Both the position numbers and the translations under genes were made by a program. Shown here one piece after another: positions 3,816 through 39,562 of a DNA stretch of 64,000 nt. The notes beneath the pieces are model-generated. The model had not been told where the DNA came from and ran no database searches. It was given only the letters and a program-made list of their open reading frames with translations. Origin of the DNA: Candidatus Iainarchaeum sp. (GTDB lineage: Archaea; Iainarchaeota; Iainarchaeia; Iainarchaeales; GCA-2688035). The stretch is taken from positions 81,883 through 145,882 of the forward strand of contig JAFCCL010000001.1 in assembly GCA_017610205.1 (NCBI GenBank), given 5' to 3'. Positions within the stretch are counted from its first letter, which is position 1; each line of letters starts with the position of its first letter.

Positions 3816-3904
3816 ATTTTGTCACACACTCCTTTTTTTGCCTATTTTAATTTTTTTTATGCATTTTTAGGTAGTTATATTTCTAAATCGGATTTTTTTC
3901 TTAA

Positions 3905-6023: not shown

Positions 6024-6024
6024 A

Positions 6025-8877: not shown

Positions 8878-8892
8878 TAATATTTATCTTTT

Positions 8893-20470: not shown

Positions 20471-21406
20471 TTAGGTATCTGCAAACAGGTGATATACTCC
20501 GTGGTGGAATTTGTCTTCCGCAATCATTTCGTCAATAGTTCTTTCAAATCTTCCCTGTTCTGAAAGAACATTTTTTGAAAGGATTTTTTTAGAAAATTTT
20601 AGTATATCCATTGATTCCCAAACCACCAGGCATTTGCGAACGCCGTGTTTTTTCAAAAGCCTGTAAAACTCCTTTGTTTTTTCCACTCCCAAAAAATCAC
20701 AATGTACTTCAATAAACAGCTGAAGATGTCCTGTTTCCTTAAAAGTTTTTTTCATTCCTTTCAGTATCTCAAATTCGTATCCTTCAACATCCATTCTTAC
20801 AATATCTGGAAGCCGTTTGTCTTTGAGAAAAGAATCAAGGGTAGTAACTTCAACAGGAACTGTTTCCCCTGTTTGATCCAAATCAATATTTTTGCAAAAG
20901 GTTGACAGGTTTGATTGCTTTGAAACAAAAATATCCTGCTTTCCGTTCTTGTCTCCAACAGCTTTGTTAAAAACCTCAATGTTTTTGTAATTATTTGCAT
21001 CAATGTTTTTCTTCAGCAACTCAACATTTCCAATAATTGGTTCTATTGCGTAAACTTTTCCTTTTGGGCCAACAGCCTTTGCTTCCATTAGCACATAATA
21101 GCCAATGTTTGCTCCAATGTCGGCAATAACCTGTCCTGATTTCAGCCTTTTCTGGAATTCAACTGTTGCATGAGCTTCTCGTATTCCATTAAGGTATAAT
21201 TCTGATGAAAGCCCTTTGTCGTCTCTTATGTTAAGAAATATTTTGCTTCCCTGCACGTCTTTTAAGACAAAATCCTCTCTATGTCTCATTTTTGCAATTG
21301 CCATTTTTATTCCTGTAACACCTCGGTCAGCTTTTATTAGCATAATTTTTATTCCTCGTTGAATAAAAGTTGCAGGGCTGTCTTCTAAAAGTCTACTCCA
21401 ATTCAA
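20471..21406 (-). CDS. FkbM-family SAM-dependent methyltransferase
   Basis: VIADIGANIGYYV...VYAIEP motif typical of FkbM (Methyltransf_21). Confidence 0.7.
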   Translation of the reverse strand: MNWSRLLEDSPATFIQRGIKIMLIKADRGVTGIKMAIAKMRHREDFVLKDVQGSKIFLNIRDDKGLSSELYLNGIREAHATVEFQKRLKSGQVIADIGANIGYYVLMEAKAVGPKGKVYAIEPIIGNVELLKKNIDANNYKNIEVFNKAVGDKNGKQDIFVSKQSNLSTFCKNIDLDQTGETVPVEVTTLDSFLKDKRLPDIVRMDVEGYEFEILKGMKKTFKETGHLQLFIEVHCDFLGVEKTKEFYRLLKKHGVRKCLVVWESMDILKFSKKILSKNVLSEQGRFERTIDEMIAEDKFHHGVYHLFADT

Positions 21407-22872
21407 TCTTCTCTCCTCCTCTTTGATTTTACAACATACTTTATAAATGTCTTTCCTCCCTTCACTAATCTTGGTATTTCGCTTGGTTGTGTGACTGCCT
21501 GCAGTGCTTTTCCCATCATATAACTTGGTCTGAAATAAAATTCTTTTCTTGCTCTGTCACACCATTCAACCATTTCCTTGTTTGATAGTTCGGGCATTGA
21601 CACCATGCAATTATGCCACCCGTTTTCGTCAATCCACTGCCTAAAATCTTCTGATACAAGATGTCCTTTTTTTCTAAAATGTTCGTATGAAGCTGTTCCT
21701 GGATAAACCATAATTGGAAAAAATTGTGCTGAATCTGGGTTTAGTCTTTTTGCAAGTTCAATTGTTGCCCTGATTGTTTCTTTATTGTCCCCTGGGTTTC
21801 CAACCATAAAACACCCGTGTACAAGAACACCTGCTTTTTTTGCATCTTTTATAAATTGTTCCATTTTTGGAACAATTGTTCCTTTTGAAACATTGTTTAA
21901 AATTTCCTGGCTTCCTGATTCAAATCCAACACACAAAAGCCTGCAGCTAGCTTTTTTCATAAGTTTTAATGTTTCCAATGGCACATCAGCCCTTGCATTG
22001 CAGCTCCACTTTACTTTTATTCCTGCTTTTATTTTTTCTTTGCAAAAATTGTCAACTCTTTTGTGGTCTGCAGTAAAGGTGTCGTCTTCAAGGAAAACCT
22101 CTTTTATTCCTGGAAAGCTTTTCACAATAAATTCAAATTCTTTTATTACATTTGCAATGCTTCTTTTTCTGTAAGGACCTGGGTTAAGGTTCTGCACCCA
22201 GTTGCAAAACTTGCAGTTAAAAGGGCATCCTCTGCCTGTAACAATTGCAACCTCTGGATAAAGATTGGCACTATAAAAATAATCCTTATAATTCAAATGC
22301 TTTTTGTAAACCCTGCTGACAAAAGGCAGTTTGTCAAGGTTTTTTATTTTTTCCCTTAACTTGTTTTTTACAATTTTTGCACCTTGTTTAAATGCAATTC
22401 CTTTAACCTTTGCAAGCTTTGGCTTTTTCTTCTCCAGTTCTTTTGCCAACGCCCTTAAAGTGTAATCGTATTCCTGCATGCACACTGCATCAATTGCTTT
22501 GCTCATCTTCATTGTTTCAACAGGCAAAGCACTTACGTGTGTGCCAACCAATACTCCAAAGCACCTGTGGGCTTTCTTTACCTTTCGCAAAACTTCGACA
22601 TCATTGTGGATGCTTGCAGTGCTTGTATCCAACACCACCATGTCTGGTTTAAATTTTCTTACAATTGCAAGCACTTTCTTTTCGCTTAAAGGAATGGCTG
22701 GTGCGTCAACAAGCTTTACTTCGTGTCCTGCTTTTTCCAAAACGCCTGTGGCATATGCAAGCCACATTGGATAATAGATTGTTCCGCCTTTTGTAACGGC
22801 AGGCGACCTGCTGCTCCTGCTATACTTTGGAAAGAACGGGGGATTTAACATTAAAATTCGCATGAAATTCAC
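21403..22872 (-). CDS. B12-binding domain radical SAM protein (class B radical SAM, probable methyltransferase)
   Basis: An N-terminal cobalamin-binding-like domain and a GRGCPFNCKFC radical SAM cysteine motif. It overlaps the FkbM gene by 4 nt. Confidence 0.8.
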   Translation of the reverse strand: MNFMRILMLNPPFFPKYSRSSRSPAVTKGGTIYYPMWLAYATGVLEKAGHEVKLVDAPAIPLSEKKVLAIVRKFKPDMVVLDTSTASIHNDVEVLRKVKKAHRCFGVLVGTHVSALPVETMKMSKAIDAVCMQEYDYTLRALAKELEKKKPKLAKVKGIAFKQGAKIVKNKLREKIKNLDKLPFVSRVYKKHLNYKDYFYSANLYPEVAIVTGRGCPFNCKFCNWVQNLNPGPYRKRSIANVIKEFEFIVKSFPGIKEVFLEDDTFTADHKRVDNFCKEKIKAGIKVKWSCNARADVPLETLKLMKKASCRLLCVGFESGSQEILNNVSKGTIVPKMEQFIKDAKKAGVLVHGCFMVGNPGDNKETIRATIELAKRLNPDSAQFFPIMVYPGTASYEHFRKKGHLVSEDFRQWIDENGWHNCMVSMPELSNKEMVEWCDRARKEFYFRPSYMMGKALQAVTQPSEIPRLVKGGKTFIKYVVKSKRRRED

Positions 22873-23606
22873 TTTTCTTTTTTGCTTAGTTTCTTGGTTT
22901 CCAAATTTGCATTCAAAAGGTCTTCAAAGTCTCCTGCGTCAAGCCAGTTGCCTTTGAGTTTTGCTGCTGAAAGTTTTCCTTTTTCAAGGAAATGCCTTTG
23001 CACGTCGGTTATTTCTGTTTCGCCTCTTGCACTTGGCTTTATTCCCCTAATTGCTTTGAACACGCTTGGATTCATAAAATATATTCCAATAATTATGTTG
23101 TTGCTTGTGGGCTTTGCAGGCTTTTCAATTACTTGAGTAACTTTTTCTCCTTCAACATCTGCAACCCCGCTTTTTTTTGCCTCTTCTGTTGTTCCTTCGT
23201 ACAAAAGAATCTGCATTTCTGAATCTCCTTTTTCAAATTGTTCTGCAAATGGTTTCAGGCTTTCAAAAACAATGTTGTCTCCATTAATTGAAATAAATTT
23301 ATCGTCTCCGACAAAATCCTCTGCCAAAGAAATTGCGCTTGGAATTCCTCCTGCTTCATCCTGAACCCTGTAAGTGAATTTTACTCCAAAATCCTTTCCT
23401 GAACCCAAATGTGAAAAAATGTCTCCTGCATGGTATGTTCCTGTAATAATCAGAATATCTTTTACTCCTGCACTTTTAAGCATTTCAATCGGGTAATAAA
23501 TCATTGGCTTGTTGTAAACAGGCAAAAGATGTTTATTTGTTGTAAGAGTCAAGGGGCGTAAACGAGATCCTGTCCCTCCAGCAAGAATTACTCCTCTAAG
23601 TGTCAT
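22869..23606 (-). CDS. Sugar-1-phosphate nucleotidyltransferase (glucose-1-phosphate thymidylyltransferase-like, short form)
   Basis: GVILAGGTGSRLRPLTLTTNKHLLPV signature; 245 aa. Confidence 0.8.
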   Translation of the reverse strand: MTLRGVILAGGTGSRLRPLTLTTNKHLLPVYNKPMIYYPIEMLKSAGVKDILIITGTYHAGDIFSHLGSGKDFGVKFTYRVQDEAGGIPSAISLAEDFVGDDKFISINGDNIVFESLKPFAEQFEKGDSEMQILLYEGTTEEAKKSGVADVEGEKVTQVIEKPAKPTSNNIIIGIYFMNPSVFKAIRGIKPSARGETEITDVQRHFLEKGKLSAAKLKGNWLDAGDFEDLLNANLETKKLSKKEK

Positions 23607-24550
23607 TAACTTAACCTCCTTTTTATTTCAAGATATTTTGTATATTTTCTATCTAAATAATATGAGGGGTTTGAATAAAGCCAATCAAAAATTTTGATTG
23701 CTTGAAATCTTCCCCTATATCTTAGAGCAAAGTGATTAGTTAGTTTTGTATTTCTTGTTAATTTAGTCTTTCTTAACTCTAAATATTTCATCAATTGTAA
23801 TTGAATTCCTGTTAAAAGTTCTTTTGTTCCAACTATCTGAAAACATGGTGATTGTGTTTTTTCATCAAACAAAAGACTTCCGTCTCCTTCAAATATCCCT
23901 TGAATAAAATTTTTTATGATTTTTTCATTATAGGTTTCTTTAATTAATTTAGGAAATTTAATTTTAAGACTTTTATTTTTGACTATGCCATACTCTTTAA
24001 GTTTGCTTACAATTTTTTTACTTGTTATCTTTAGATGCATTTGTTCATATTCTTTACCTGTTTTTTCAAGTTTTACCGTTACCTCATAAACAGGCCCATT
24101 GTATTTGAGTAACTTTTTTATTTTTTGAATTATATCTGAATCTTTTTTTGATACTTTTATACCAACGCTTATTGCATTGCCACATTTATTAACAAATCCA
24201 TTGCTTGCAAGCCAACCTAATATCCATGCATTTAAGGGATTTAACTCTTCAAAAAAATTATCGTTCACCGAATACTTTCGCTTATGAATTTTCCATGTTT
24301 TTTCTTTAGCCTTTAAACCATACTTTTTCATTCTATGACTTATAACCCATTGAGAGGTTCCCAATTCGCTGGCTATATCTTGTTGAGATTTATTTTTCTC
24401 AAAATATTCTTGTTCAATAAATTCTTTGCTGATATCATATTTTTTAGGCATGTAATAATCAAAGTTTATCCCTTTAAAGACGCTTTCTAAAGAGTAGGTT
24501 TCCGGTGATTTGTTGTCTCCTTCTTCTACAAATAATTGATTCAATACCAT
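23606..24550 (-). CDS. Free-standing LAGLIDADG-family homing endonuclease-like protein with N-terminal HTH
   Basis: It has two LAGLIDADG-type motifs, NAWILGWLASNGFV (degenerate) and KNFIQGIFEGDGSLLF (canonical GxxxGDGS). An N-terminal helix-turn-helix-like segment precedes them. The gene is markedly more AT-rich than its flanking genes. Confidence 0.6.
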   Translation of the reverse strand: MVLNQLFVEEGDNKSPETYSLESVFKGINFDYYMPKKYDISKEFIEQEYFEKNKSQQDIASELGTSQWVISHRMKKYGLKAKEKTWKIHKRKYSVNDNFFEELNPLNAWILGWLASNGFVNKCGNAISVGIKVSKKDSDIIQKIKKLLKYNGPVYEVTVKLEKTGKEYEQMHLKITSKKIVSKLKEYGIVKNKSLKIKFPKLIKETYNEKIIKNFIQGIFEGDGSLLFDEKTQSPCFQIVGTKELLTGIQLQLMKYLELRKTKLTRNTKLTNHFALRYRGRFQAIKIFDWLYSNPSYYLDRKYTKYLEIKRRLS

Positions 24551-24849
24551 AAAATTGATCGCCTCTTAGTGGTTCTAAAGTATATTGCAAAAAAAGTACC
24601 GAGAATTGAAACGAAAACAAATCCTTGCAAAAATTGAATAGCCCAGTGTGGATAAACATAAGTTGCATTTACTAAGAAATAATTTGAATTAATTAGATCA
24701 AGAATGAAAAAAAAAGAAAGTCCAATTAAACACAATCCAACGACTGCTAAAGTTTTTTTTGGGTCCGTCCATGTATACTCAATTGCTTTTACAAATAACT
24801 GTTTAATAATAATTATTTTTTCGTTTGAGATTATTTTTTCGCCCTTCAT
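24541..24849 (-). CDS. small hypothetical membrane protein (2 predicted TM helices)
   Basis: 102-aa ORF that is AT-rich and adjacent to the HEG. I recognise no family. Confidence 0.3.
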   Translation of the reverse strand: MKGEKIISNEKIIIIKQLFVKAIEYTWTDPKKTLAVVGLCLIGLSFFFILDLINSNYFLVNATYVYPHWAIQFLQGFVFVSILGTFFAIYFRTTKRRSILWY

Positions 24850-24993
24850 TTGTACAAATTCCCCTCTTTTTTTAGAAAAAAATTGGTCTGCAATTTATAG
24901 TATATATTGTATTTATTTCCTCCAAACCTTCATTATAAAGGCTTTGGTACAGTTTTGGAAAACGACCTTAATTAACAAAAAAGAGCCACAATT

Positions 24994-25959
24994 TCAAGTT
25001 TGCTTGATTAAAGGCTTCCACCAGGCTTCGTTTTTTTTGTACCATTCAACTGTTTCTTTCAAACCTTTTTTGAAATCTGTTTCGGCTTTCCAGCTCAATT
25101 CCTTTTCAATTTTTGAACAGTCGAGGCTGTAGCGCAGGTCGTGTCCCAACCTGTCCTTAACTTTTTCAATCATTTCGTCGCCCTTGCCTAATTCTGCAAG
25201 AATCATTTTTGTAAGCTCGATATTCTGCAACTCGTTTCCGCCGCCAATGTTGTAAACTTCTCCAATCTTTCCCTTTTCAAGTACTGTATCAATTCCGCTG
25301 CAGTTGTCTAAAACAAAAAGCCAGTCACGAACATTCTTTCCCTCTCCATACAATGGAACTTTTTTGCCTGTAATGATGTTTGTTACAAAAAGCGGAACAA
25401 TTTTTTCAGGAAACTGGAAAGGACCATAATTATTGCTGCTTCTTGTTACAAGAACAGGCAATCCATAGGTTGTAAAATAGCTCATTGCAAGAAGTTTGCC
25501 TCCTGCCTTTGCTGCACTGTAAGGGTTTCTTGGGTTTAGCTTGTCTGTTTCCTTAAAGCTTCCTTCTGCAATTTGCCCATAGACTTCGTCTGTTGAAATC
25601 TGAATAAATTTTTTAACATCCTGTTTTCTTGCCTGTTCGCACAAAACTTTTACTCCAAAAAAATTTGTCCTTGCAAATGCATCCGAATCCTCAATTGACC
25701 TGTCAACATGGCTTTCTGCAGCAAAATTTATTACTGTTTCACATCCTTCCATTGCTTTTTTCACATCGCTAGGATTGCAAATGTCTCCTTTGAAAAACGT
25801 GTAATTTGTGTTGTTTTCAATGTCCTGAAGGCTTTCCTTTCTGCCTGCGTAAGTAAGCTTGTCAAGGTTTACAATTTGGTCTTCTGGAAATTTTTCAAGG
25901 CGTTGCCTGATATAATTACTTCCAATAAAGCCACAACCTCCTGTTACAAGAATCTTCAT
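24994..25959 (-). CDS. rmlB: dTDP-glucose 4,6-dehydratase
   Basis: MKILVTGGCGFIGSNYIRQ... and full-length RmlB-like similarity. The start is taken at the ATG at 25959; the ORF track extends to a TTG at 25971. Confidence 0.85.
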   Translation of the reverse strand: MKILVTGGCGFIGSNYIRQRLEKFPEDQIVNLDKLTYAGRKESLQDIENNTNYTFFKGDICNPSDVKKAMEGCETVINFAAESHVDRSIEDSDAFARTNFFGVKVLCEQARKQDVKKFIQISTDEVYGQIAEGSFKETDKLNPRNPYSAAKAGGKLLAMSYFTTYGLPVLVTRSSNNYGPFQFPEKIVPLFVTNIITGKKVPLYGEGKNVRDWLFVLDNCSGIDTVLEKGKIGEVYNIGGGNELQNIELTKMILAELGKGDEMIEKVKDRLGHDLRYSLDCSKIEKELSWKAETDFKKGLKETVEWYKKNEAWWKPLIKQT

Positions 25960-25961
25960 AA

Positions 25962-26038
25962 ATTCCACCAATTCCTTTTATCAATAACTCCTGTTAATTT
26001 TTTTGTCAATAAATTCCACTAATTCCTTTTATCAATAA
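25962..26038. repeat. Two copies of a 28-nt direct repeat (AAATTCCAC[CT]AATTCCTTTTATCAATAA) in the rmlB / radical-SAM divergent intergenic region
   Basis: The copies lie at about 25960-25988 and 26010-26038 with one mismatch, separated by a T-rich spacer. Confidence 0.4.
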
Positions 26039-26061
26039 TTGCATGAAATTTATATATATCG

Positions 26062-26123
26062 TTTGGTGCAATCCTCAAAGCCAGGCCGCCTGCAAAGGTT
26101 TTAAAACATCTCTTGAATTATTT
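26062..26123 (+). promoter_or_regulatory. Conserved 62-nt leader/promoter copy 1 (TTTGGTGCAAT...AAAGGTTTTAAAAC BRE/TATA) upstream of B12-radical-SAM paralog 1
   Basis: Near-identical to 27697..27758, with about 4 mismatches. It contains the TATA-like TTTTAAAA preceded by an A-rich BRE-like stretch. Confidence 0.4.
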
Positions 26124-26157
26124 CTCATATACTTATTAACTCAGGATTTGTTTGAAT

Positions 26158-27672
26158 ATGCAAAAAAAGCAAAAAGTTGTACTTTTTTTACCAAAAGCAA
26201 GAAAGCACACATTTCACGGAACTTTGCCTGTTGCCTTGCTTAAACTTGCTTCAATGGTTGACAGAAAAAAGTTTGATTTGGATTTAATTATTGCAAAACC
26301 AAATGTAGATTATGAAAAGCAGGTGGTTGAAGCATCCAAGGGTGCTATGTGTGTTTGTTTAAGTGTTCTGACTGGTAATGATATTACTAATGCATTGACG
26401 ATTACAAAAAAAATCAGAGTTGTTTCAAAGGCTACTGTTGTTTGGGGTGGCTGGCATGCAAGTATTTTTCCAGAGCAAACTCTTGAGAATCAATATGTTG
26501 ACATTGTAATCAGGGGACAGGGGGAAAGAACTTTTCAAAAGCTAATTGAACGTCTTGCTGAAAAGAAAAGCCTAAAAGGATTACTTGGTGTTTCCTACAA
26601 AGAAGGGGGAAAAATTAAGCGCAATGAAGACCGGCCTTTTGAGGACATAAACAATTTTCCGCCAATTTCCTACAATTTAGTTAATTTAGAAGATTATATT
26701 TCAACCTTTAATGGAATGCGTGGCATGGTTAGTTTTACCAGCCAGGGCTGTCCTTTCAACTGCAAATTCTGTGCAGAGCCATTGGTTTACAAACAGCAAT
26801 ATTCTGCGCTTTCAAATGACAGGATTCTTGACGAATGGGAATTTTTTGTTAAGGAACATAATATTAAGTTTGTTGGAATTACTGACGACAATTTTTTTGT
26901 TAATGAAGCAAAAATAATTGACTTTTGTCAAAAGCTTCTTAAAAGAAAGCTTGGAGTAAAATGGGGCAAGGCTTGTGGAAGGGTTAGACAAATGCTTGCG
27001 TTCAAAGACAGCACTTGGCAGCTTATTGCCGATGCAGGTTGTATGGATATTGAAATTGGAGACGAAAGTGGAATTCAGAGCACTCTTGATTTTATTAACA
27101 AACAGTTGTCTGTTGAAGAAATTGTGGAATTTACAAATAAATGCAGAAAGTATGGTTTTGAGGTAATGCACAATTGGCTTTATGGAATTCCTTTGCCTCA
27201 GTTCAAAACAATGAACAAAAAGGAAATTAATGCCTGGATTTGGAAAGAGTGGCTTGCAATGTTTGATGTAATGGATAAATGCCACCACAAATACAAGGAT
27301 TATGATGAAGTTAGAGTTTGTCCATACTATCCCTATCCTGGAAATCCACTCTTTGACCTGTCATGCGAGCTTGGGTTCAAACCGCCAACAAAGCTTGAAA
27401 ACTGGGCTAACCTCAAACCAGCTATATGGCTTGATGACTCCTGGAATGACAAGCGAAGAATGCTTTTGCATTTTATTTTTCCATATGCATCGGATTTTTA
27501 TGCTGAAAGGCACATGAAAAAATTTAGGCTGGTTCAAAGATTTTTCCACGAAACAGCAAAGTTTAGGTGGAAGTACAGATATTTTGGATTTCCATTAGAC
27601 TACAGGTTGTATGAGTTTTACACCAATTTCAGAATGAAAATCACAGGCGTTTCTGCAACTGAGCACGATTAA
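26158..27672 (+). CDS. B12-binding domain radical SAM protein, paralog 1
   Basis: SQGCPFNCKFC radical SAM motif and an N-terminal B12-binding-like domain. It is about 60% identical to the downstream paralog. The start is taken at the ATG at 26158. Confidence 0.8.
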   Translation: MQKKQKVVLFLPKARKHTFHGTLPVALLKLASMVDRKKFDLDLIIAKPNVDYEKQVVEASKGAMCVCLSVLTGNDITNALTITKKIRVVSKATVVWGGWHASIFPEQTLENQYVDIVIRGQGERTFQKLIERLAEKKSLKGLLGVSYKEGGKIKRNEDRPFEDINNFPPISYNLVNLEDYISTFNGMRGMVSFTSQGCPFNCKFCAEPLVYKQQYSALSNDRILDEWEFFVKEHNIKFVGITDDNFFVNEAKIIDFCQKLLKRKLGVKWGKACGRVRQMLAFKDSTWQLIADAGCMDIEIGDESGIQSTLDFINKQLSVEEIVEFTNKCRKYGFEVMHNWLYGIPLPQFKTMNKKEINAWIWKEWLAMFDVMDKCHHKYKDYDEVRVCPYYPYPGNPLFDLSCELGFKPPTKLENWANLKPAIWLDDSWNDKRRMLLHFIFPYASDFYAERHMKKFRLVQRFFHETAKFRWKYRYFGFPLDYRLYEFYTNFRMKITGVSATEHD

Positions 27673-27696
27673 AACAAAGTTGTTTTATCTTAAGAC

Positions 27697-27758
27697 TTTG
27701 GTGCAATTCTCAAAGCCAGGTTGCCTGCAAAGGTTTTAAAACATCTCTTGGATTATTT
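27697..27758 (+). promoter_or_regulatory. Conserved 62-nt leader/promoter copy 2 upstream of B12-radical-SAM paralog 2
   Basis: Duplicate of 26062..26123. Confidence 0.4.
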
Positions 27759-27794
27759 ATGCTATTGAATCACTTTTTTTTGGGTTTGACTAAT

Positions 27795-29312
27795 ATGCCG
27801 GTAAGACAAAAAATAATTCTTTTTTCTCCAAAACCAAGAAGACATACTTACAGCAACAGTATTCCTGTTGCATTGCTCAAAATTGCGTCAATGATTGACC
27901 GTAAAAAATACGAATCGGTAATTGTTTCAGCAACACCAAAATATGACTACGAAACCCAGATTTTGAAGGATTCAAAAGATGCATTGTGCTTTGCTGTTCG
28001 CGTGTTAACAGGACACGACATAATTGAAGCAATAGAGCTAATAAAAAAAATCAAAAAAGTTAACCCAAACCTTCCTATTGTATGGGGTGGATGGCATGGT
28101 GCAATTTTTCCAGATCAAACTCTTGAAAGCAGCTATGCTGATATAATTATAAGGGGTCAGGGTGAGCGCACTTTCAAAGAACTTGTTGAAAGGTTGGTTA
28201 CAAAAAAAGATCTTAAAGGATTACCAGGCATTATTTACAAAGACAAAAGCGGAAAAATAATTCACAACCCTGAAAGGCCTTTTGAAGACATAAATAATTT
28301 TCCGGACATTCCCTACGATCTCATTAACATAGACGATTACGTTGACAACTTTGACGGTTTGCGTGCGGCATTTTATGTCACAAGCCAAGGCTGTCCTTTT
28401 AAATGTAAATTTTGCGCGGAACCACTTGTATTCAAGCAACGATGGTCTTCCCTAAGCAACGAGCGCATTCTCAAAGACTGGGAATACCTTTCAAAAAAAG
28501 GCATTGAATTTATCATAATTGGTGATGACAACTTTTTTGTAAACGAAAAAAAAGTCAAAGACTTTTGTGAAAAATTCATTGCAAAAAAACTTCCGTTAAA
28601 ATGGGGCCGTGTTTCTGGAAGGGTTAGGCAAATGCTTGCTTTTTCTGACGAAACCTGGCAGCTTATCAAAGACACTGGCTGTACAGACATACAGGTTGGC
28701 GCAGAAACAGGCGACCAAAATGTGCTTGACTACATTGGAAAAGAGCTTACTGTTGACGAAATAGTGCAATTTATTGAAAGGGCAAGGAAATTCAAAATAA
28801 AGGCAACTCCTGCCTTCATTCTCGGTCTTCCAACAGAGGAATTCAGAAAAGCTTCATCAAAAGAAATTCAAAAACTTTTAGACAAACAGTGGAATGCATT
28901 TTTTGACGTAATGGACAGGTGCTATAAAGACCACAAGGACTATGACGAAATCCGTTTGTTTGCCTACGATCCTTATCCTGGAAACCCACTTTATGATTTA
29001 TCCTGTGAGCTTGGTTTTGACGCGCCAAAAAAGCTTGAAGAATGGGCAATAATTCGACCTGCTCCTTGGATAAAAGAAAGTCTTCGTGAAAAAATAAGAA
29101 TGCTTCAATATTTTTTGTTTCCCTATGCTCGCGATGGTTACGCAGGCAGACACATAAAAAAATTCAAGCTGTTGCAAAAGCTTTTTCACAAAAGCGCACA
29201 ATGGCGATGGAAGCACAGATTCTTTGCACTGCCAATAGAATACAAAATGTACCGGGCTTATACAAACCTTAGAACCAAAAAAACAGGGCAATCTGCAACA
29301 GACCATGAATAA
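27795..29312 (+). CDS. B12-binding domain radical SAM protein, paralog 2
   Basis: SQGCPFKCKFC motif. Its start is aligned to paralog 1 (MPVRQKIILF). It is preceded by the same 62-nt leader as paralog 1. Confidence 0.8.
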   Translation: MPVRQKIILFSPKPRRHTYSNSIPVALLKIASMIDRKKYESVIVSATPKYDYETQILKDSKDALCFAVRVLTGHDIIEAIELIKKIKKVNPNLPIVWGGWHGAIFPDQTLESSYADIIIRGQGERTFKELVERLVTKKDLKGLPGIIYKDKSGKIIHNPERPFEDINNFPDIPYDLINIDDYVDNFDGLRAAFYVTSQGCPFKCKFCAEPLVFKQRWSSLSNERILKDWEYLSKKGIEFIIIGDDNFFVNEKKVKDFCEKFIAKKLPLKWGRVSGRVRQMLAFSDETWQLIKDTGCTDIQVGAETGDQNVLDYIGKELTVDEIVQFIERARKFKIKATPAFILGLPTEEFRKASSKEIQKLLDKQWNAFFDVMDRCYKDHKDYDEIRLFAYDPYPGNPLYDLSCELGFDAPKKLEEWAIIRPAPWIKESLREKIRMLQYFLFPYARDGYAGRHIKKFKLLQKLFHKSAQWRWKHRFFALPIEYKMYRAYTNLRTKKTGQSATDHE

Positions 29313-29384
29313 AAGAAATTAATAAAACAGAAAAGAACAAAATAGGAGTTTACTGATTTTAAATTAGTACATTTTAAATAGTTT

Positions 29385-30635
29385 TTAAATTGGCACATTC
29401 CAAATTATATTTACGAGTATTGGGTTATAGTTTATTAACAACACTATATCAAACAAAAGCATACTGGAAAGAACAATCCAAACAAATGTCTTTGCCCATT
29501 TTTCCTGCCTGATTGTTTTCATAAAAGAAAGTAAACCTGCAATAAAAAGTATTGCGATAAGTCCAACTGTTCCAAACATCCATCTTGCATCAGGTCCTAC
29601 TACAAAAAAATTTATGTATGCAACTCCTGCAAGGTTTAAAAGAATTGGGAGAATAAGAACAGCTGTTATTAGTTTTTTTCTTTTGTTGTTCCATTTATTT
29701 CCAAGAATTAATTTTACAAACCCTATTAGTGCAACAATTGAAACAATTGCATAAAATCCAAAGAAAACAAATCTATATTCAGGAATTGTTGCAGTTCCAT
29801 ATTCCTGAAGCCACATTCCTGCAAATAAATATGTTAAAAAATAAGCAAGCCATTGAATATCAATTGCCATCATTGGCTTTAAAAAGCTTGGGAAAAAATT
29901 CCCCGATAGCAAAAGGTACCTGTAAAACGTGACTATTCCCAGCAATGGTACAGAACATGCCAAAATTCTTTTCCACAATTTTTCTTTTCCCTTAAATAAA
30001 AATACAAACCACGCAATTCCAAATGTTACTGCAACTGCAAGTCCTGTAAGCATCGTAAGTAAAACTCCAGCCATAAAAAGTCCGGCAATTGCCATATCTT
30101 TTGTCTTTTTTTCTTTAAACACTTTAATACTGTAGTATATTACCACTAGGCATAAGAGCCAGCTTAAAGTTCCATTACTGACTGTTGCGCTTGTAATTAT
30201 ATGTGTTGGAAGTAAAGCAACAAACATTGCACTTCCAAGTCTTACAATTTTTCCAAAATTCAGTTTTTTTGCAATAATATATGTTAGAAGAATGCAAGCA
30301 GTTCCAAACGCAACAGAAAGAAGCCTTAGAACATGCACAATAGTGTCAATGCTCTGGCTTGCGATTGGAATGTAAAAAATTGCTGCAATACTATGGAATA
30401 AAGGTGGTTGCGAAAGGCTTTCATTTGAAATGCTTGCAAGAGTTTCGTGTGTAAGCGGAATCATAGGCAGTCTGGCATTGTCTCCAATGAATTCAATGTA
30501 AAAAATATGAGCTCCTTCTTCAGGTCCAGACCAAACAGGAAAAAGTGCACTTCCTGCAAGTCTTAAACCCAACCCAAACAAAATTATAAGGACAATGACC
30601 TTAAATTCATTTTTTTCTCGCAATTTCAAAAACAT
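29385..30635 (-). CDS. GT-C-fold glycosyltransferase (ArnT/PMT-like, GT83/GT39-like), polyprenyl-phosphate-sugar dependent
   Basis: About 10-12 predicted TM helices. The first extracytoplasmic loop motif, SGPEEGAHIFYIE, resembles the DE.RYAE motif of ArnT/PMT. It is a functional analogue of AglS-type enzymes. Confidence 0.5.
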   Translation of the reverse strand: MFLKLREKNEFKVIVLIILFGLGLRLAGSALFPVWSGPEEGAHIFYIEFIGDNARLPMIPLTHETLASISNESLSQPPLFHSIAAIFYIPIASQSIDTIVHVLRLLSVAFGTACILLTYIIAKKLNFGKIVRLGSAMFVALLPTHIITSATVSNGTLSWLLCLVVIYYSIKVFKEKKTKDMAIAGLFMAGVLLTMLTGLAVAVTFGIAWFVFLFKGKEKLWKRILACSVPLLGIVTFYRYLLLSGNFFPSFLKPMMAIDIQWLAYFLTYLFAGMWLQEYGTATIPEYRFVFFGFYAIVSIVALIGFVKLILGNKWNNKRKKLITAVLILPILLNLAGVAYINFFVVGPDARWMFGTVGLIAILFIAGLLSFMKTIRQEKWAKTFVWIVLSSMLLFDIVLLINYNPILVNIIWNVPI

Positions 30636-30687
30636 TCACCTCCACTCAGAACTGAAGTCTTTTTTGAATGCATAATCTTAATCATAT

Positions 30688-30978
30688 CTACGAGTCCTCT
30701 TCAAATTCAATAAAATTACCGCTTTGAATTTTAGCCCTTGTGCTAATGCTTTCCTCTTCAGAATCGCATTTCAGGCGTTCAACTTCAATATTTTGATTAT
30801 ATATACAATCTTCTTTTTTGCCATAACACAAATACCTAGTATTTTTAACATGCCAGCAGGCAAAATTCTCTTCGAAACTGTAGTCAACAGGTCCTTGAAA
30901 CAAAATCAAAAAATCCACTGCAACTATGATTATTAGTATAACAAAAAAACAAATTAATCTAAAAAACTTAACCGGCAT
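30688..30978 (-). CDS. small secreted/anchored cysteine-containing hypothetical protein
   Basis: An N-terminal hydrophobic helix followed by four Cys and an acidic C-terminus. Confidence 0.25.
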   Translation of the reverse strand: MPVKFFRLICFFVILIIIVAVDFLILFQGPVDYSFEENFACWHVKNTRYLCYGKKEDCIYNQNIEVERLKCDSEEESISTRAKIQSGNFIEFEEDS

Positions 30979-31014
30979 TTAATATCACCACGCTCTTTTT
31001 TTCCAAAAAAACAC

Positions 31015-31935
31015 TTACACGTCCTTTTTGAATTTGGCAAAGCATCTTTTAATGCCTTCATCCAAACTAATTTTTGGCTTCCAATCCAATTCCGAACAAG
31101 CTCTTGAAATATCGCACACAAGTCGTTGCACTTCACAGGCTTTGTTAAGGCGATTTATTTCAATGTTGTTTCCAGTTGCCTTTTTAACTTTTTCAGCAAG
31201 GTTGTTTAGTGAAATAACCTTGCCTGATCCAAGATTAAAAATTTTAAATCTGCTTTTGTTAAAACCAGCTGCAATAACCCCGCTTGCAAGGTCTTCTGCA
31301 TGCAAAAAATCCTTTTCAGAGCTTCCGTTTCCATAAATCACAATCGGCTTGTTCCTTAATGCATTAAAAACAAAGTTTGCTATAACACCTGTTCCCTTGG
31401 AAACTACCTGCCTTTCACCATAGCTTGTTGTTGGCCTTAGAATTGCATAATCAATTCCGTAAACTCTGTTAAAGTATTCAATATATTTTTCAATTGCCAT
31501 TTTTGAAACAGCATATGGTGTCATTGGTTCAAGTCTGGCATTTTCTTTTGCCGGAATGGTTTTTGTGTTTCCGTAAACAACAATAGAACTCAAGTAAACA
31601 ATTTTTTTTACTCCAAGTTCACATGAATCCCTCAAAATATTAATGCTTGGCAAAATATTTGTTTCTGCGTCAAAAACAGGCTTTTCAATGCTTGTTCTTG
31701 GAACAGTTGTGTGAATGCAGTGAAAAACATATTCAATTCCATCCAATGCCTGCCTTACATCCTTTTGATTAATGTAATCTCCTTTAACCTTTTCAATTTT
31801 TGTTTCAATTGCCTTTAAGTTGTTCTTGCCAGTAAACTTGTCAAAGACTCTGACATTGCAGCCTTTTGCAACAAGCTTCTCTGCAACAAAGCTTCCAATA
31901 AGTCCGTTTCCTCCTAAAACAAGGCAATTATTCAT
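31015..31935 (-). CDS. NAD-dependent nucleotide-sugar epimerase/dehydratase
   Basis: NNCLVLGGNGLIGSFVAEKL Rossmann motif and an SDR fold over its full length. Confidence 0.8.
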   Translation of the reverse strand: MNNCLVLGGNGLIGSFVAEKLVAKGCNVRVFDKFTGKNNLKAIETKIEKVKGDYINQKDVRQALDGIEYVFHCIHTTVPRTSIEKPVFDAETNILPSINILRDSCELGVKKIVYLSSIVVYGNTKTIPAKENARLEPMTPYAVSKMAIEKYIEYFNRVYGIDYAILRPTTSYGERQVVSKGTGVIANFVFNALRNKPIVIYGNGSSEKDFLHAEDLASGVIAAGFNKSRFKIFNLGSGKVISLNNLAEKVKKATGNNIEINRLNKACEVQRLVCDISRACSELDWKPKISLDEGIKRCFAKFKKDV

Positions 31936-31976
31936 AAAAGTAATAGGACAGCTAAACCCTTATTAATTTTTCCAAA

Positions 31977-32984
31977 CTAAATCGTTATTTTTTTAGGGAA
32001 CAAAAGAGCCTGCGTTGTTCCAATACTGTATGCAATGTGTGTTATAAAAACAATAAAGATGCAAAATGGTACATGAACTGGTTTGACAGAATGCTCAAGG
32101 CAGTCAATTCCAATAGCGGTTGCATAAAACACAAAGCTGGCAGCATAAAAAATCCACAGTATTGGAAACACGATGGCAACAAATGGCATAAAAACAACGT
32201 AAAATAAGAATGCAATTACCACTGTGTTTGTAATTCTAAAAGAATCAGTTTCCTTCAATACATCTATTTTTCCCCTTCCATAATCTTTAAGTCTTGGAAT
32301 GTATTCTGAAAAACTTCTCTTGTTGTGATGGTGCACTGCAGTTTCTTTGTTGTACAGTATAAGCTTTCCTGTTTTTCTGAGTAGGATGCATGCTTTTACA
32401 TCCTCACCTGTTGGGCAATTTTCGTCAAACTTTCCTATCTGAAGTAAAAGGTTTCGTTTTATTATAATGTTGCTTGTTGGCAGTTCCTTGTATACTAGAA
32501 TTCCTTTATGTTTTTTGAAAGTACTATGCATTCCTGTATCTGTTACGTAAAGATGCATAGTTTTTATTGCAAGTGATTCCCAAAGTCCTATGTTTTTTGG
32601 TTCGAGGTTTGGTCCACCGACAGCGGCAACTTTATCATCCCTCAAAAATGGCAATGCACTTTCAAGCCATTTGGATTGCGGGTATGCATCTGAATCAATA
32701 CACGCTATAAATTCAGCTTTTGTGTTTTCAATTCCAATATTGCGTTTTGCTGAAGCAACTCCTTTTGGAAGGTTTTGCCCGGTAGGAATACATCTTATTT
32801 TCTCCGACTTTTTTTTACCAAACTTTTCAACCAGTGCCTGTTTTTCTATTTTGTTGTCTGGTAATAATATTAATTCAAAATCCTGTCTTGTCTGATTCAA
32901 ACAACCTTCAATACATTCCAAAACAAAACTGTCCAATGTCTTAAATGGTACAATTATTGCAAACAAAGGCTTTTTTTCCATCAT
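31977..32984 (-). CDS. GT2 glycosyltransferase with C-terminal TM helices
   Basis: FAIIVPFKTLDSF ... ILLPDN region of the GT2 fold, with a hydrophobic C-terminus. Confidence 0.7.
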   Translation of the reverse strand: MMEKKPLFAIIVPFKTLDSFVLECIEGCLNQTRQDFELILLPDNKIEKQALVEKFGKKKSEKIRCIPTGQNLPKGVASAKRNIGIENTKAEFIACIDSDAYPQSKWLESALPFLRDDKVAAVGGPNLEPKNIGLWESLAIKTMHLYVTDTGMHSTFKKHKGILVYKELPTSNIIIKRNLLLQIGKFDENCPTGEDVKACILLRKTGKLILYNKETAVHHHNKRSFSEYIPRLKDYGRGKIDVLKETDSFRITNTVVIAFLFYVVFMPFVAIVFPILWIFYAASFVFYATAIGIDCLEHSVKPVHVPFCIFIVFITHIAYSIGTTQALLFPKKITI

Positions 32985-34075
32985 TTCCCAACCTGAAGCT
33001 TGAGTCTAATCCATTGAAGCAGAACTTTCAAAAGTTCTGTTGCGTTGAATGCAACATTTGACGTGAGCTGGCATTCAAACGTGCAAAAACATTTGCTTTC
33101 TCTTATGGATTTTGCAATCTTTCTATTTTCTTTTGTTGAAAGCAGTTTTTTCAAATTAAAGTCAAAGTTTTTGAGATTTCCAAGAAAAAGATCCTGCCTG
33201 ATTTCACAGGCAAATACATTACCATTTGAATAAATGATGCAATTTGTTGTAGCAGCATAACATGGTAACTGAAATTTGTTTTCCTTCAAAGTTTTGAGAA
33301 TCACCTGCTTATATCTTTTGTTTAAACATGTATAAAAGTCCCCAAAGATTTGGTGGCCCTTATATTTCTTTTTTGCAAGATCTGTTGCAATTTCTTTGTT
33401 CACTTTCATATATTGTTCAATTGTTTCCTTTGATTTCCTTGCGTTTTTTGGTTCGCCTCTTAAAAAATTTATCTGAAACTGGTTTATATCAAAGTCTGAA
33501 AGCATTTTTTTGTACACAGACATCGTTTCTTGCGCATTGTCTTCACTAATAGTGTAAATTACTCCAATCTTTAGGTTTTTGAATCTTATTTTAAGTTCTA
33601 AAAGCTTTGCTAAAGTTTTGCACGCATTTGAGAATGCATTTTTTGATCCTCTTATTTGATTATGTATTTTCTCAGTGCCATCAATTGAAACTGAAATATT
33701 GAAAATTATATCAGGGTTTTCTTCAGCCATCTTGGTTGCTTTTGCTACAATTTTTTCAGTAAACGTGCCGTTTGTTGGAATTGAAATTATTTTTACACTG
33801 CTGTTTTTTGCAAACAATGCTGCGATTTTGTCAATGTCTTCTCTGAGAAATGGTTCACCCCCTGTTAGACTTACATGTATCAAACTCGGCATGCTTTTTG
33901 ATATTTTTTCAATTTCTTTGAGTGGAATTTCTTCAGGCTTGTTCAGTGATTTGTGAAAAAAACAGTGGCTGCATTTAAGATTGCATCTGCTTGTGATATA
34001 AAGAATCACATAAACAGGAAGCATGTTTTTCTTGAATAAGACATTTTTTGCCTGTTTCAATATTGAAATTTTCAT
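32981..34075 (-). CDS. Radical SAM / SPASM-domain protein
   Basis: YITSRCNLKCSHCF (CxxxCxxC) plus a C-terminal Cys-rich region (CYAATTNC...CEIR...CFCTFEC) typical of a SPASM/twitch auxiliary cluster. Confidence 0.75.
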   Translation of the reverse strand: MKISILKQAKNVLFKKNMLPVYVILYITSRCNLKCSHCFFHKSLNKPEEIPLKEIEKISKSMPSLIHVSLTGGEPFLREDIDKIAALFAKNSSVKIISIPTNGTFTEKIVAKATKMAEENPDIIFNISVSIDGTEKIHNQIRGSKNAFSNACKTLAKLLELKIRFKNLKIGVIYTISEDNAQETMSVYKKMLSDFDINQFQINFLRGEPKNARKSKETIEQYMKVNKEIATDLAKKKYKGHQIFGDFYTCLNKRYKQVILKTLKENKFQLPCYAATTNCIIYSNGNVFACEIRQDLFLGNLKNFDFNLKKLLSTKENRKIAKSIRESKCFCTFECQLTSNVAFNATELLKVLLQWIRLKLQVGK

Positions 34076-35484
34076 AAAAAACCGCCTCTTTTCAACAGCT
34101 TGTTTTTCCTGTTAATAAATTCTCTTTCCATCTTAAGCGACTGCTTGTTTAAAATAACATCAAAACACATTTTCAACACCTTTAGCGGGTGGAAAATTGC
34201 CTTGTAGAGTAGGAACGTAAAGTAAAGTTCTTTAACATATTTATTCACTTCCAAACTGTTTGGATACCATCCAGGTACTGTTCCTATATTTAGGTCGTCA
34301 ATTCCCTTTATATTTTTGTTAAAATATTTTTTCCTAATTTCTGTATTTGGATATGGAATACATGGAAACACACCAACTTCATCCACTCCAATCCTTGCAA
34401 GCCTTTTCAGATATGCCCTTGTCTTCTGTTTATCATCTTCAGTTTCAACTGGTAATCCAACGACAAAGAACGCGGTTGTTTTTATTCCAACATTCTTACA
34501 ATTTTTTATACAATTTGCAATGTTTTCAAGATCAATATGCTTGTTGTAAACTTCTTTAAGGATTCTTTGACTTCCTGATTCAGGTGCAAACACCAACAAT
34601 TTGCATCCGCTTTCTTTCATTAGCTTAAGTGTTTCAAGGTCAAGGTACTCGGATCTTACTCCGTTTGGTGTTGTCCAAGTTATCCTGAGTTTTTTTTTCT
34701 TAATAAGCCTGAAGATTTTTTTTGCTCTCTCAATATTAAGCGTAAGGTTGTCATCTTCTATTTCAAATTCAGTTGTGCCATATTTTTCAATACAATGTTG
34801 AATTTCTTTAACAAAATTTTCTGGTTTTCTTGCAACCCAATGCCTGCGCCAGAATACAGCGCTTGAGCAATAGGTACAATTGTATGGACATCCCCTTGAA
34901 GAAATTATTGGAGTGAATTTTTTGTTTACTGGCCCGTGGCTCCTTTTGGCTTTCCAGTAATTTTCTAATGGAAAAAGATGCCTTGCTGGAAATGGCAGCA
35001 TATCAAGATTTTCAATGAACTCTTTTTTTTCCCTGCTTACAATCTTTCCATTTTTTATATATGCGATTCCATTAATTGCCTCAATTGAACCACTTTTTTT
35101 TGACAGTTTGTCAATAAGTTTTAACAGAGTTTCCTCTGCTTCTCCAAGTACTGCATAGTCTACTCCCTTCTCAAGGAACCTTTTATAATTTGCTGTTGCC
35201 TCGTTTCCGCCAATTATTATCTTTTTTTTCGGAAATCTCTTTTTAAGTCTTGAAACCAGATCAAGATAAACCTTGTGCTGTGAAGTAAAGTTTGCTGAAA
35301 TGCAGATTAATTCACTTTCTTTAGGAATCATTTCGATTAATTCTTCAATATCAAGGCCTCTAAGGAATAATCTGTGTTTCCAATCGCTTACCTTCTCTAT
35401 CCCAAGCCCAAGAGCGTCAATTACCTTTACCTTAAAACCTTTTTTTAGAAGATAGGCTGCAAGGTATGCAAGGCCCAATGGCAT
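34072..35484 (-). CDS. B12-binding domain radical SAM protein
   Basis: N-terminal LGLAYLAAYLLKKGFKVKVID (B12-binding-like) and SRGCPYNCTYC radical SAM motif. It overlaps the SPASM gene by 4 nt. Confidence 0.8.
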   Translation of the reverse strand: MPLGLAYLAAYLLKKGFKVKVIDALGLGIEKVSDWKHRLFLRGLDIEELIEMIPKESELICISANFTSQHKVYLDLVSRLKKRFPKKKIIIGGNEATANYKRFLEKGVDYAVLGEAEETLLKLIDKLSKKSGSIEAINGIAYIKNGKIVSREKKEFIENLDMLPFPARHLFPLENYWKAKRSHGPVNKKFTPIISSRGCPYNCTYCSSAVFWRRHWVARKPENFVKEIQHCIEKYGTTEFEIEDDNLTLNIERAKKIFRLIKKKKLRITWTTPNGVRSEYLDLETLKLMKESGCKLLVFAPESGSQRILKEVYNKHIDLENIANCIKNCKNVGIKTTAFFVVGLPVETEDDKQKTRAYLKRLARIGVDEVGVFPCIPYPNTEIRKKYFNKNIKGIDDLNIGTVPGWYPNSLEVNKYVKELYFTFLLYKAIFHPLKVLKMCFDVILNKQSLKMEREFINRKNKLLKRGGFL

Positions 35485-35534
35485 AGTTGTAACAAAAATC
35501 TGGCTTCCTGGGATTTCTGCAACTGGTGGATTAA

Positions 35535-37263: not shown

Positions 37264-37267
37264 GGTA

Positions 37268-38386: not shown

Positions 38387-38438
38387 TCGTGTTCAGCCCA
38401 AACAAGGTCTTTTTTTCAGCAGATTTTTTCCAATCTTC

Positions 38439-39554: not shown

Positions 39555-39562
39555 TTTATCAC

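Follow-up and report, generated by a model that had tools for sequence, protein, structure and literature searches.

Antibiotic and hopanoid pathways provide documented cases of radical S-adenosylmethionine (rSAM) tailoring of sugars, whereas protein N-glycosylation and general surface-glycan assembly do not. Reviews list HpnJ, the calditol synthase Cds and PtmC as the sole proposed sugar-to-cyclitol rSAMs, none of which has been characterized biochemically. HpnJ, whose function is known from knockouts only, is proposed to catalyze the ring contraction of lipid-bound glucosamine to a cyclitol in bacteriohopanetetrol cyclitol ether biosynthesis, and GenK C-methylates an unactivated sugar carbon. 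In the literature on rSAMs in archaeal, DPANN or O-antigen glycosylation, we found no rSAM assigned to any archaeal Agl pathway. In this study, we analyzed a 64-kb window (the whole stretch of DNA considered here, 64,000 nucleotides of contig JAFCCL010000001.1 from Candidatus Iainarchaeum sp.) which carries five rSAM genes inside a glycosylation island. An earlier sequence-only reading had proposed that these enzymes serve glycan chemistry, and our results agree. The link between the rSAM genes and glycan biosynthesis is well supported because each rSAM family occurs somewhere fused to a glycosyltransferase (GT) or a sugar-type methyltransferase, GT neighbors are kept across phyla and domains, the genes lie in the array of the oligosaccharyltransferase AglB, and their fold neighbors include enzymes that act on carbohydrates. 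We also consider it probable, although with less assurance, that three rSAM modules, each wired to a GT, carry out radical tailoring of glycan sugars, with the lipid-linked stage the probable point of action.

The window was scanned by listing its open reading frames (ORFs) and comparing them with Pfam and NCBIfam profiles; below, L-numbers denote related loci and P-numbers library proteins. Four ORFs encode a PF02310 B12-binding domain and a PF04055 Radical_SAM domain, both above cut-offs, and were designated B12a (21403-22872, minus strand), B12b (26152-27672, plus strand), B12c (27759-29312, plus strand) and B12d (34072-35484, minus strand). The fifth rSAM, a SPASM-like enzyme referred to here as the twitch-like rSAM (32981-34075, minus strand), has PF04055 Radical_SAM and PF13353 Fer4_12 matches. 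All five ORFs are full length, their products are predicted to be soluble and their CxxxCxxC motifs are intact, those of B12a to B12d being CPFNCKFC, CPFNCKFC, CPFKCKFC and CPYNCTYC; the N-terminal B12-binding domain followed by an rSAM domain with CxxxCxxC gives all four the architecture of class B rSAMs. The five genes lie within 15 kb, and a motif scan of the 64 kb found no other ORF of at least 150 residues with CxxxCxxC, save one spurious antisense ORF. The profile scans thus reproduced the inventory that had been read between 20471 and 35484 (four B12-rSAMs, one SPASM-type rSAM and an FkbM methyltransferase), and two 4-nt overlaps that had also been noted are present, TTGA at 21403-21406 between the B12a stop and the FkbM gene and ATGA at 34072-34075 between B12d and the twitch-like rSAM. 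A third overlap, ATGA at 32981-32984, joins the twitch-like rSAM to the next GT2, and B12d, the twitch-like rSAM and this GT2 therefore form one coupled triad. The set of B12-rSAM genes stood, whereas their starts needed revision: B12b starts at 26158 and B12c at 27795, as in public gene calls identical to the window (P0256 and P0246, respectively), B12d extends upstream of 35484, and the start of B12a is most likely ATG 22863 (gene 21403-22863, minus strand) because homologs align from that Met.

Module 1 comprises, in order, RmlB and RmlA, B12a, the FkbM methyltransferase, a membrane-anchored GT2 and a GT4. B12a matched the HpnJ model TIGR03471 over its full length, with residues 4-483 aligned to positions 1-470 of the 472 in the model, at 419.8 bits, below the cut-off of 577.6, with BchE as the second-best family at 168 bits, and an annotated HpnJ from Mycetohabitans is 34% identical to it over 98% of its length. 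A genome scan placed relatives of B12a in more than 588 genome loci of Archaea and Bacteria, at 53-83% identity in Iainarchaeota and 50-56% in bacteria (Fibrobacterota/Chitinispirillales, Desulfobacterales, Thermodesulfovibrionales, Chloroflexota, WOR-3 and anammox bacteria). Among 113 positions that are invariant in 20 archaeal members, 113 are kept in Fibrobacterota, 111 in Desulfobacterales and 98 in Lawsonia, compared with 73 (65%) in HpnJ and 38-50 (34-44%) in B12b, B12c and B12d. Since these positions are kept across archaea and bacteria, the conservation points to a single tightly constrained family that is sister to HpnJ and presumably has one function.

The genomic company of B12a is equally constant. 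Of the 75 loci that could be assessed, 46 have a GT2 gene directly downstream of the B12a homolog and 14 others have one no more than two ORFs away; this total of 60 is a lower bound, as the ORF calling was crude. The pair spans Iainarchaeota, Hydrothermarchaeota, Fibrobacterota, Desulfobacterales, Chloroflexota and anammox bacteria. In several archaeal loci it stands directly after AglH, Alg14 and Alg13 (this trio adjoins it in L016, L024, L032, L034, L037, L046 and L069); in Desulfobacterales a gene for Bac_transf, a priming enzyme, comes after the partner GT2, and a Chloroflexota locus has a GT2-Bac_transf fusion. The partner GT2 of the window (19473-20447, minus strand; transmembrane helices at 241-315) and the adjacent GT4 (18370-19476, minus strand), both assigned with Pfam, are constant partners of B12a. 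We considered whether the former is HpnI-like and rejected this at 25 bits against a cut-off of 310. The FkbM-family methyltransferase (20471-21406, minus strand) exceeded the TIGR01444 cut-off (109.8 against 37.7 bits) and matched PF05050 at 83.9 bits, and in the closest relatives it forms with B12a a single protein of 792 or 823 residues (P0001 and P0002). On the other side of B12a, RmlB (dTDP-glucose 4,6-dehydratase; 24994-25971, minus strand) scored 448.6 bits against the TIGR01181 cut-off of 365.1, and the RmlA-like sugar-1-phosphate nucleotidyltransferase (22869-23606, minus strand) scored 188.9 bits with PF00483 and 240.7 bits with rmlA_long, below the latter's cut-off of 320. The order RmlB-RmlA-B12a is kept across Iainarchaeota loci.

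The AlphaFold2 model of B12a has a predicted local distance difference test (pLDDT) score of 86.3, and its nearest fold is that of AprD4 (TM-score 0.71-0.78), followed by TsrM, MgmA, CysS, OxsB and TokK. The sole low-confidence part of the model (pLDDT 35-45) is a strictly conserved loop at residues 14-30, SR.SRSPAVTKGGT.YYP.W, which may act as a mobile lid that covers the site for substrate or cofactor. Four cysteines, C307, C311, C351 and C435, are invariant throughout the B12a family, including its bacterial members, and are Leu or Thr in true HpnJ; their role could be to ligate an additional Fe-S cluster or to serve as hydrogen-atom donors.

Further observations concern the B12a loci themselves. 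A 314-residue ORF (23606-24550, minus strand) between rmlB and rmlA, which shares 1 nt with rmlA (23606), has weak LAGLIDADG_3 and HTH_50 matches; homologs of 61% identity occupy the same site in L020 and L034, and L008 retains a 36-residue C-terminal remnant. The ORF has the appearance of a free-standing gene of homing-endonuclease type, gained and lost at the rmlB/rmlA junction. The two loci closest to the window, L005 (DAOWAC010000051.1) and L006 (JAFCCG010000001.1), are deposited as Chloroflexota/Chloroflexi metagenome-assembled genomes (MAGs) but have 83% identity on B12a and the same archaeal gene order, and L008 carries a Thaumarchaeota label; all three are probably mis-binned or mislabeled DPANN contigs. 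A bacterial relative is found on plasmid 1 of the pig pathogen Lawsonia intracellularis (NC_008012.1, 7085-26518; L089), a plasmid of 27 kb, on which a B12a-family rSAM of 47% identity overlaps a class I methyltransferase other than FkbM. The same plasmid region encodes a second rSAM, four more methyltransferases, GT2s, SIS/GHMP-kinase/HAD heptose-type genes and DUF2142.

Module 2 contains B12d, the twitch-like rSAM, a membrane-anchored GT2 and a short-chain dehydrogenase/reductase (SDR), next to a GT-C enzyme. In B12d, taken as 34072-35544 (minus strand; PF02310 and PF04055), the codons for the conserved first strand of the B12 domain, KPIVLINPPVAEIPGSQIFVTT, lie in frame ahead of ATG 35484. 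Library homologs align from residue 1-2 of this extended protein, the extension overlaps the upstream GT2 gene by about 10 nt, and the upstream stretch differs from that of the 80%-identical ortholog in L085 by 12 synonymous substitutions and one non-synonymous substitution, which indicates purifying selection on the N-terminal region. The best NCBIfam matches of B12d were to Sden_1168, a P-methyltransferase (198 bits, cut-off 575), and PhpK; a role as phosphonate P-methyltransferase was set aside because these scores fall far short of the cut-offs and the window contains neither a PEP (phosphoenolpyruvate) mutase gene nor any phosphonate gene. Among the relatives of B12d are giant proteins, 1,800-2,300 residues long, in which separate B12-rSAM-like stretches occur two to four times (P0372, P0373, P0377, P0393 and P0445).

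The second enzyme of module 2 had been described as a SPASM protein resembling maturases. This description held in part. The overall fold is that of the anaerobic sulfatase-maturating enzyme (anSME), and the C-terminal auxiliary domain is a shortened one of SPASM/twitch type. PF13186 aligned to it over profile positions 1-64 of 67 with 18.9 bits, the cut-off being 21.5, and the enzyme has four to five auxiliary cysteines rather than the seven of the SPASM motif with its two auxiliary clusters. Many homologs at 30-48% identity carry a precomputed PF13186 match. In an alignment of 30 homologs, C272, C290, C329 and C331 were invariant, C335 was present in 26 and C279 in five, a pattern of four invariant cysteines plus one near-invariant that fits a single, predicted, auxiliary Fe-S cluster. 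In this respect it resembles twitch-like proteins with one auxiliary cluster more closely than it does peptide maturases. The AlphaFold2 model (pLDDT 90.3) gave anSME as the top Foldseek match (E 2.9e-13, TM-score 0.62), then SkfB, SuiB and CteB, with DesII also listed. Four independent GT2-rSAM fusions of about 617 residues span the whole rSAM (P0158, P0200, P0219 and P0229).

The GT2 of this triad (31977-32984, minus strand; PF13641 and PF00535) has C-terminal transmembrane helices at 248-323 and a 77% identical ortholog in L085. It is followed by an SDR-type sugar epimerase/reductase (31015-31935, minus strand; PF01370) which resembles LegB and GalE below their cut-offs, and by a polytopic, PMT_2-like GT-C membrane GT (29385-30635, minus strand) with a weak PF13231 match and about 10 transmembrane segments. 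PMT-like GT-C genes adjoin rSAM modules in the window and in L001, L004 and L085. The triad recurs in Iainarchaeota (L085, with orthologs of 75-80% identity in the same order), Woesearchaeota (L086) and Patescibacteria (L087), and in an AglB-linked locus (L004).

Module 3 consists of B12b and B12c, paralogs that are 55% identical and lie on the strand opposite to the other modules. Their family is smaller than that of B12a, with 537 matches at E <= 1e-20, mostly from DPANN archaea and scattered bacteria, and tandem copies of the same type also occur in L014. A member of the B12c family, P0278, is a 772-residue fusion of a methyltransferase, a GT4 and a B12-rSAM, and its cluster holds a GT2-FkbM fusion and a Methyltransf_24 gene.

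The ORF listing and the Pfam and NCBIfam matches show that positions ~0.4-46.6 kb of the window form a single glycosylation island. Its gene order is AglB, an AglH-like GlcNAc-1-phosphate transferase, Alg14, Alg13, a GT2, a Methyltransf_24 enzyme, two SDRs, a GT4 and GT2s, followed by the rSAM modules and, past these, by RmlB/RmlA, more GTs, a phosphodiesterase, a UDP-GlcNAc 2-epimerase and a deacetylase; co-directional packing is tight, with intergenic gaps of -35 to +86 nt. The N-glycosylation locus is anchored by the AglB/STT3 oligosaccharyltransferase (44472-46634, minus strand; PF02516 STT3, PF22627 AglB_core-like), whose WWDEG motif is at residue 526. Adjoining it are the genes for the lipid-linked chitobiose core, namely the AglH-like transferase (43348-44385; PF00953), the Alg14-like protein (42886-43347; PF08660) and the Alg13-like protein (42386-42886; PF04101), all on the minus strand and together spanning 42386-44385 with gaps of 0 and -1 nt. 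The window thus has what defines an AglB locus, an STT3 protein with WWDXG, a lipid-phosphate priming transferase and GTs. Archaeal markers (TBP, L10e and AglB/STT3 with its WWDEG motif) are present, and the closest relatives of the window are Candidatus Iainarchaeum MAGs (Diapherotrites, DPANN). Therefore, we favor, with some reserve, the view that the rSAM region is the variable tailoring part of an island for an AglB-dependent N-glycan (lipid-linked oligosaccharide) in an Iainarchaeota-like DPANN archaeon.

Other genes of the island complete this setting; those given below between 14940 and 41386 are on the minus strand. The class I SAM methyltransferase at 40673-41386 is of the Methyltransf_24 type and CmcI/rhamnosyl O-methyltransferase-like (PF13578 96.1 bits, PF04989 27.7 bits; no NCBIfam match). 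It is one of two class I methyltransferases that had been counted in the cluster; it does lie inside the island, whereas the second, at 50099-50767, sits past AglB among housekeeping genes. Pfam further identified the two SDR epimerase/dehydratases (39563-40612 and 38439-39554), the GT4 (37268-38386) and two GT2s (36373-37263 and 35535-36407), and the framework genes of 35535-40612 are syntenic with 78-90% identity in L001/L006 and 53-57% in L002. A polysaccharide deacetylase (14940-15794; PF01522), with an 85% identical ortholog in L001, belongs to the same co-directional array and is possibly an analog of the HpnK step. Also within the GT array is a type I phosphodiesterase/nucleotide pyrophosphatase-family protein (16891-18336), homologs of which adjoin B12-rSAM genes in L004, L014, L050 and L051. 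The left end of the island (388-9858) has a lower GC content, 29-33%, and encodes a CMP-sugar-type cytidylyltransferase-GNAT fusion, a DegT aminotransferase and an SDR, which are nonulosonic-acid-like, as well as an APS (adenosine 5'-phosphosulfate) kinase and a sulfotransferase; these genes suggest acidic and sulfated sugars in the same glycan. The right end of the window encodes pyrimidine biosynthesis, and Rfam gave no match in 18-48 kb.

The density of rSAM genes in the island had been called atypical for archaeal agl clusters. This is correct in comparison with characterized model archaea and does not hold in DPANN archaea and candidate phyla radiation (CPR) bacteria, where rSAM clusters recur: there are four rSAMs in each of L004 and L014, and L087 (Patescibacteria) has six rSAMs together with four methyltransferases in 17 kb. 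Five rSAMs in 15 kb is the top of the range, yet it is not unique. In most Iainarchaeota loci around B12a that rSAM stands alone, while about ten loci carry two to four. The B12a-like gene belongs to the conserved core of glycosylation loci in Iainarchaeota, and the other four rSAMs are swappable cassettes.

From the gene content, coupling, fusions, synteny and family placement observed, we infer both the substrate stage and every reaction type. The lipid-linked stage is suggested because both partner GT2s have C-terminal transmembrane helices and because the HpnI/HpnJ and calditol precedents act after transfer to lipid; the GT-C neighbors suggest polyprenyl-phosphate-linked donors. In the mechanism we propose, the coupled GT2 would act at the cytoplasmic membrane face and attach a sugar to a dolichyl-(pyro)phosphate-linked intermediate, and the soluble rSAMs would then functionalize unactivated C-H bonds of that sugar. 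For B12b to B12d, cobalamin-dependent C-methylation would be the most likely reaction, whereas for B12a methylation and an HpnJ-type skeletal rearrangement or ring contraction would be of roughly comparable likelihood. For the twitch-like rSAM, oxidation of an alcohol to a ketone or epimerization would be the most likely, with the adjacent SDR potentially resetting the stereochemistry. The FkbM and Methyltransf_24 enzymes could then O-methylate the sugar, and AglB or a GT-C enzyme would deliver the product outside the cell. C-methylated sugars, which had been predicted from the letters alone, are a reasonable prediction for these clusters, with no enzyme placed in a methylase family: the cut-offs of the curated families (PhpK, Sden_1168, HpnR, KedN5, MJ_0865, TsrM-type and others) were not reached, the best scores being 198 against 575 bits for B12d, 135 against 750 for B12c and 119.6 against 481 for B12b.

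Several results weigh against this mechanism. None of the five rSAMs reached any curated NCBIfam cut-off, and PDB sequence searches with four of the rSAM proteins returned distant core matches only, with no close solved relative; the reaction types above are guesses for these reasons. To our knowledge AprD4, a B12-fold enzyme and the nearest fold to B12a, does not use cobalamin, so that a B12-like domain is no proof of methyl transfer, and no cobalamin uptake or salvage genes were found within the 64-kb window. When the partner GT2s were compared with the PDB as candidate polyprenyl-phosphate transferases of the GtrB, ArnC or DPMS type, single-sequence and profile searches matched only their generic N-terminal nucleotide-binding half (chondroitin synthase first; DPMS, ArnC and GtrB far lower). 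The HpnJ precedent itself stands on a knockout, and we found no DPANN N-glycan structure in the literature. The nearest relative of the window (L001/L006, 83% identity) does not have four of the five rSAMs and carries class I methyltransferases and LPG_synthase_TM instead, which marks the four as dispensable accessories. Finally, the conserved N-terminus of B12d (35485-35562) contains no ATG, GTG or TTG start, the TTG start of the L085 ortholog being ACG in the window; this implies initiation at a non-canonical codon, ATC 35544 or ACG 35562.

The alternative that survives best is that the same chemistry takes place on soluble nucleoside diphosphate (NDP)-sugars, for example dTDP-4-keto-6-deoxyglucose from RmlA/RmlB, before any GT acts, as DesII does on TDP-sugars. 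The solubility of all the rSAMs, the presence of DesII among the fold neighbors of the twitch-like rSAM and the string of RmlB and RmlA directly upstream of B12a, kept across Iainarchaeota, would all suit such an early step, as would the NDP-heptose pathway genes that flank the triad in L086 (SIS/GHMP-kinase/HAD/NTP-transferase genes) and L087 and are also found on the Lawsonia plasmid. However, RmlA and RmlB are missing beside the bacterial B12a homologs, and the partner that is universal across the two domains is a membrane GT2 and no NDP-sugar enzyme. The GT2-rSAM and GT4-rSAM fusions likewise argue that the rSAM acts on the product of the transferase or in a complex with it, and the HpnI/HpnJ and calditol precedents act after sugar attachment. 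We therefore regard action on NDP-sugars as unlikely, if worth keeping in view.

More doubtful still is the possibility that the enzymes act on head groups of membrane glycolipids or on the lipid carrier instead of on the protein N-glycan, through an HpnIJK/calditol-like conversion of hexosamine to cyclitol on scavenged archaeal lipids or through methylation of dolichol. HpnJ is the nearest family to B12a, and in L004 (3823-8720) a GT2, a B12-rSAM, a deacetylase and LPG_synthase_TM mirror the hpnI-hpnJ-hpnK-LPG_synthase array of Mycetohabitans (L090, 4686-9334), although the deacetylases are non-homologous; LPG_synthase_TM genes also occur in L001 and L002, the window array has a deacetylase, and several weak NCBIfam matches were to lipid-modifying B12-rSAMs (a ladderane-type enzyme and HpnR). 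The window, in contrast, has neither LPG_synthase_TM nor lipid biosynthesis genes, the B12a partner GT2 is not HpnI-like, and the contexts are those of glycan polymers, namely the AglB/AglH/Alg13-14 array in the window and Bac_transf, Wzy_C and GT9 in bacteria. The sequence-only reading had named placement in lipid, cofactor or tRNA-modifying families as evidence against sugar chemistry, and no such family cut-off was reached by any rSAM. The hopanoid name of HpnJ does not alter this because HpnJ is proposed to act on a glucosamine head group.

Another explanation, which we consider very improbable, is that the triad of module 2 matures a ribosomally synthesized and post-translationally modified peptide (RiPP) of the glycocin or sactipeptide kind and merely lies inside the island. 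The fold neighbors of the twitch-like rSAM (anSME, SkfB, SuiB and CteB) do act on protein or peptide, weak NCBIfam matches to RiPP maturases and to the B12-rSAM ApyD were obtained, and GT2 enzymes of the SunS type glycosylate peptides. Nevertheless, as had been noted from the sequence, no peptide substrate is beside the SPASM-like enzyme: neither a conserved small ORF nor a peptidase or exporter is near the triad, the only candidate, a 96-residue ORF (30688-30978), has no homolog in related loci, and no Pfam protease, ABC exporter or peptide-recognition domain was found among the window ORFs scanned. In addition, the GT2 has C-terminal transmembrane helices, its neighbors are of glycan type in every related locus, and merely four to five auxiliary cysteines are conserved. 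That the genes are incidentally clustered or decaying passengers of a hypervariable island, as the lost canonical start of B12d and the four rSAM genes missing from the nearest relative might suggest, is scarcely credible given full-length ORFs with intact cluster motifs, purifying selection on the B12d N-terminus, L085 orthologs of 70-80% identity in retained order, and five rSAMs in 15 kb with none elsewhere in 64 kb.

Within radical tailoring at the lipid-linked stage, a more specific possibility is that the B12a family, which occurs in more than 588 species-level genomes, is the glycan-level counterpart of HpnJ and calditol synthase, and contracts or rearranges a hexose or hexosamine just added by the GT2 to a polyprenyl-linked oligosaccharide, giving a carbocyclic (cyclopentitol-type) unit that is then O-methylated by the coupled methyltransferase. 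We put this forward as speculation with only a modest chance of being correct. If true, a single conserved module of two genes would supply carbasugars to the N-glycans of archaea and to the surface glycans of bacteria. The B12a and GT2 module is nearly residue-for-residue conserved between Archaea and Bacteria, and its elucidation would establish a new step in the assembly of lipid-linked glycans. What appears new here is best classed as the movement of rSAM sugar tailoring into the assembly of lipid-linked N-glycans or surface glycans, and the locus supplies three concrete, testable rSAM-GT modules. In genome-reduced symbionts that are unable to make cobalamin, the cell surface would depend on this cofactor, which may tie DPANN/CPR organisms metabolically to their hosts. 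The homologous cluster on Lawsonia intracellularis plasmid 1 is an experimental entry point in a sequenced, named pathogen strain.

We found no description of the B12a-GT2 module in the literature, and comparison with known systems is by parts. Characterized Agl clusters of Haloferax, Methanococcus and Sulfolobus share with the window AglB, an AglH-type priming enzyme, GT2 and GT4 enzymes, SDRs and SAM O-methyltransferases. The twitch-like rSAM is like anSME in its rSAM core and its C-terminal Cys-rich domain with a CX17C (GX4C) hairpin, and differs from anSME-type enzymes in having four invariant and one near-invariant auxiliary cysteines rather than seven, no peptide partner, and GT2 fusions in relatives. 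BtrN is a SPASM/twitch rSAM dehydrogenase; it was not among the top 50 fold matches of the twitch-like rSAM. AprD4, an rSAM 1,2-diol dehydratase of paromamine, and DesII, an rSAM of TDP-sugars, are fold matches of B12a and the twitch-like rSAM, respectively, and have carbohydrate substrates; they are only 14-20% identical to them, belong to antibiotic deoxysugar pathways and are not coupled to a GT2. The class B methylases GenK and GenD1 of gentamicin biosynthesis and the solved TsrM, TokK, CysS and MgmA share the N-terminal B12-binding domain and the rSAM core, and such enzymes are among the fold neighbors (TM-score 0.6-0.7); the sequence similarity is limited to the common core (E 1e-7 to 1e-13), and their context is antibiotic biosynthesis rather than protein or cell-surface glycans.

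The two closest parallels concern B12a. Calditol synthase (Saci_1489 of Sulfolobus acidocaldarius), likened here by its description and not by sequence, is an archaeal rSAM proposed to rearrange a lipid-bound hexose after glycosylation; its homologs are reported mainly from acidophiles, whereas carriers of the B12a family are anaerobic bacteria and DPANN archaea of groundwater and sediment. HpnJ is alike in domain make-up (a B12 domain and an rSAM domain), in its full-length match to B12a with 73 of the 113 family invariants, in having a membrane GT2 gene as neighbor, in some cases together with genes for a deacetylase and an LPG_synthase_TM protein, as in the true hpnI-hpnJ-hpnK operon of L090, and in its proposed substrate, a lipid-attached glucosamine placed by the GT2 HpnI. 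B12a differs from it in scoring below the equivalog cut-off, in its archaeal host, in a window with no hpn or shc genes, in a partner GT2 that is not HpnI, in the four family cysteines that HpnJ does not have and in being coupled or fused to an FkbM methyltransferase.

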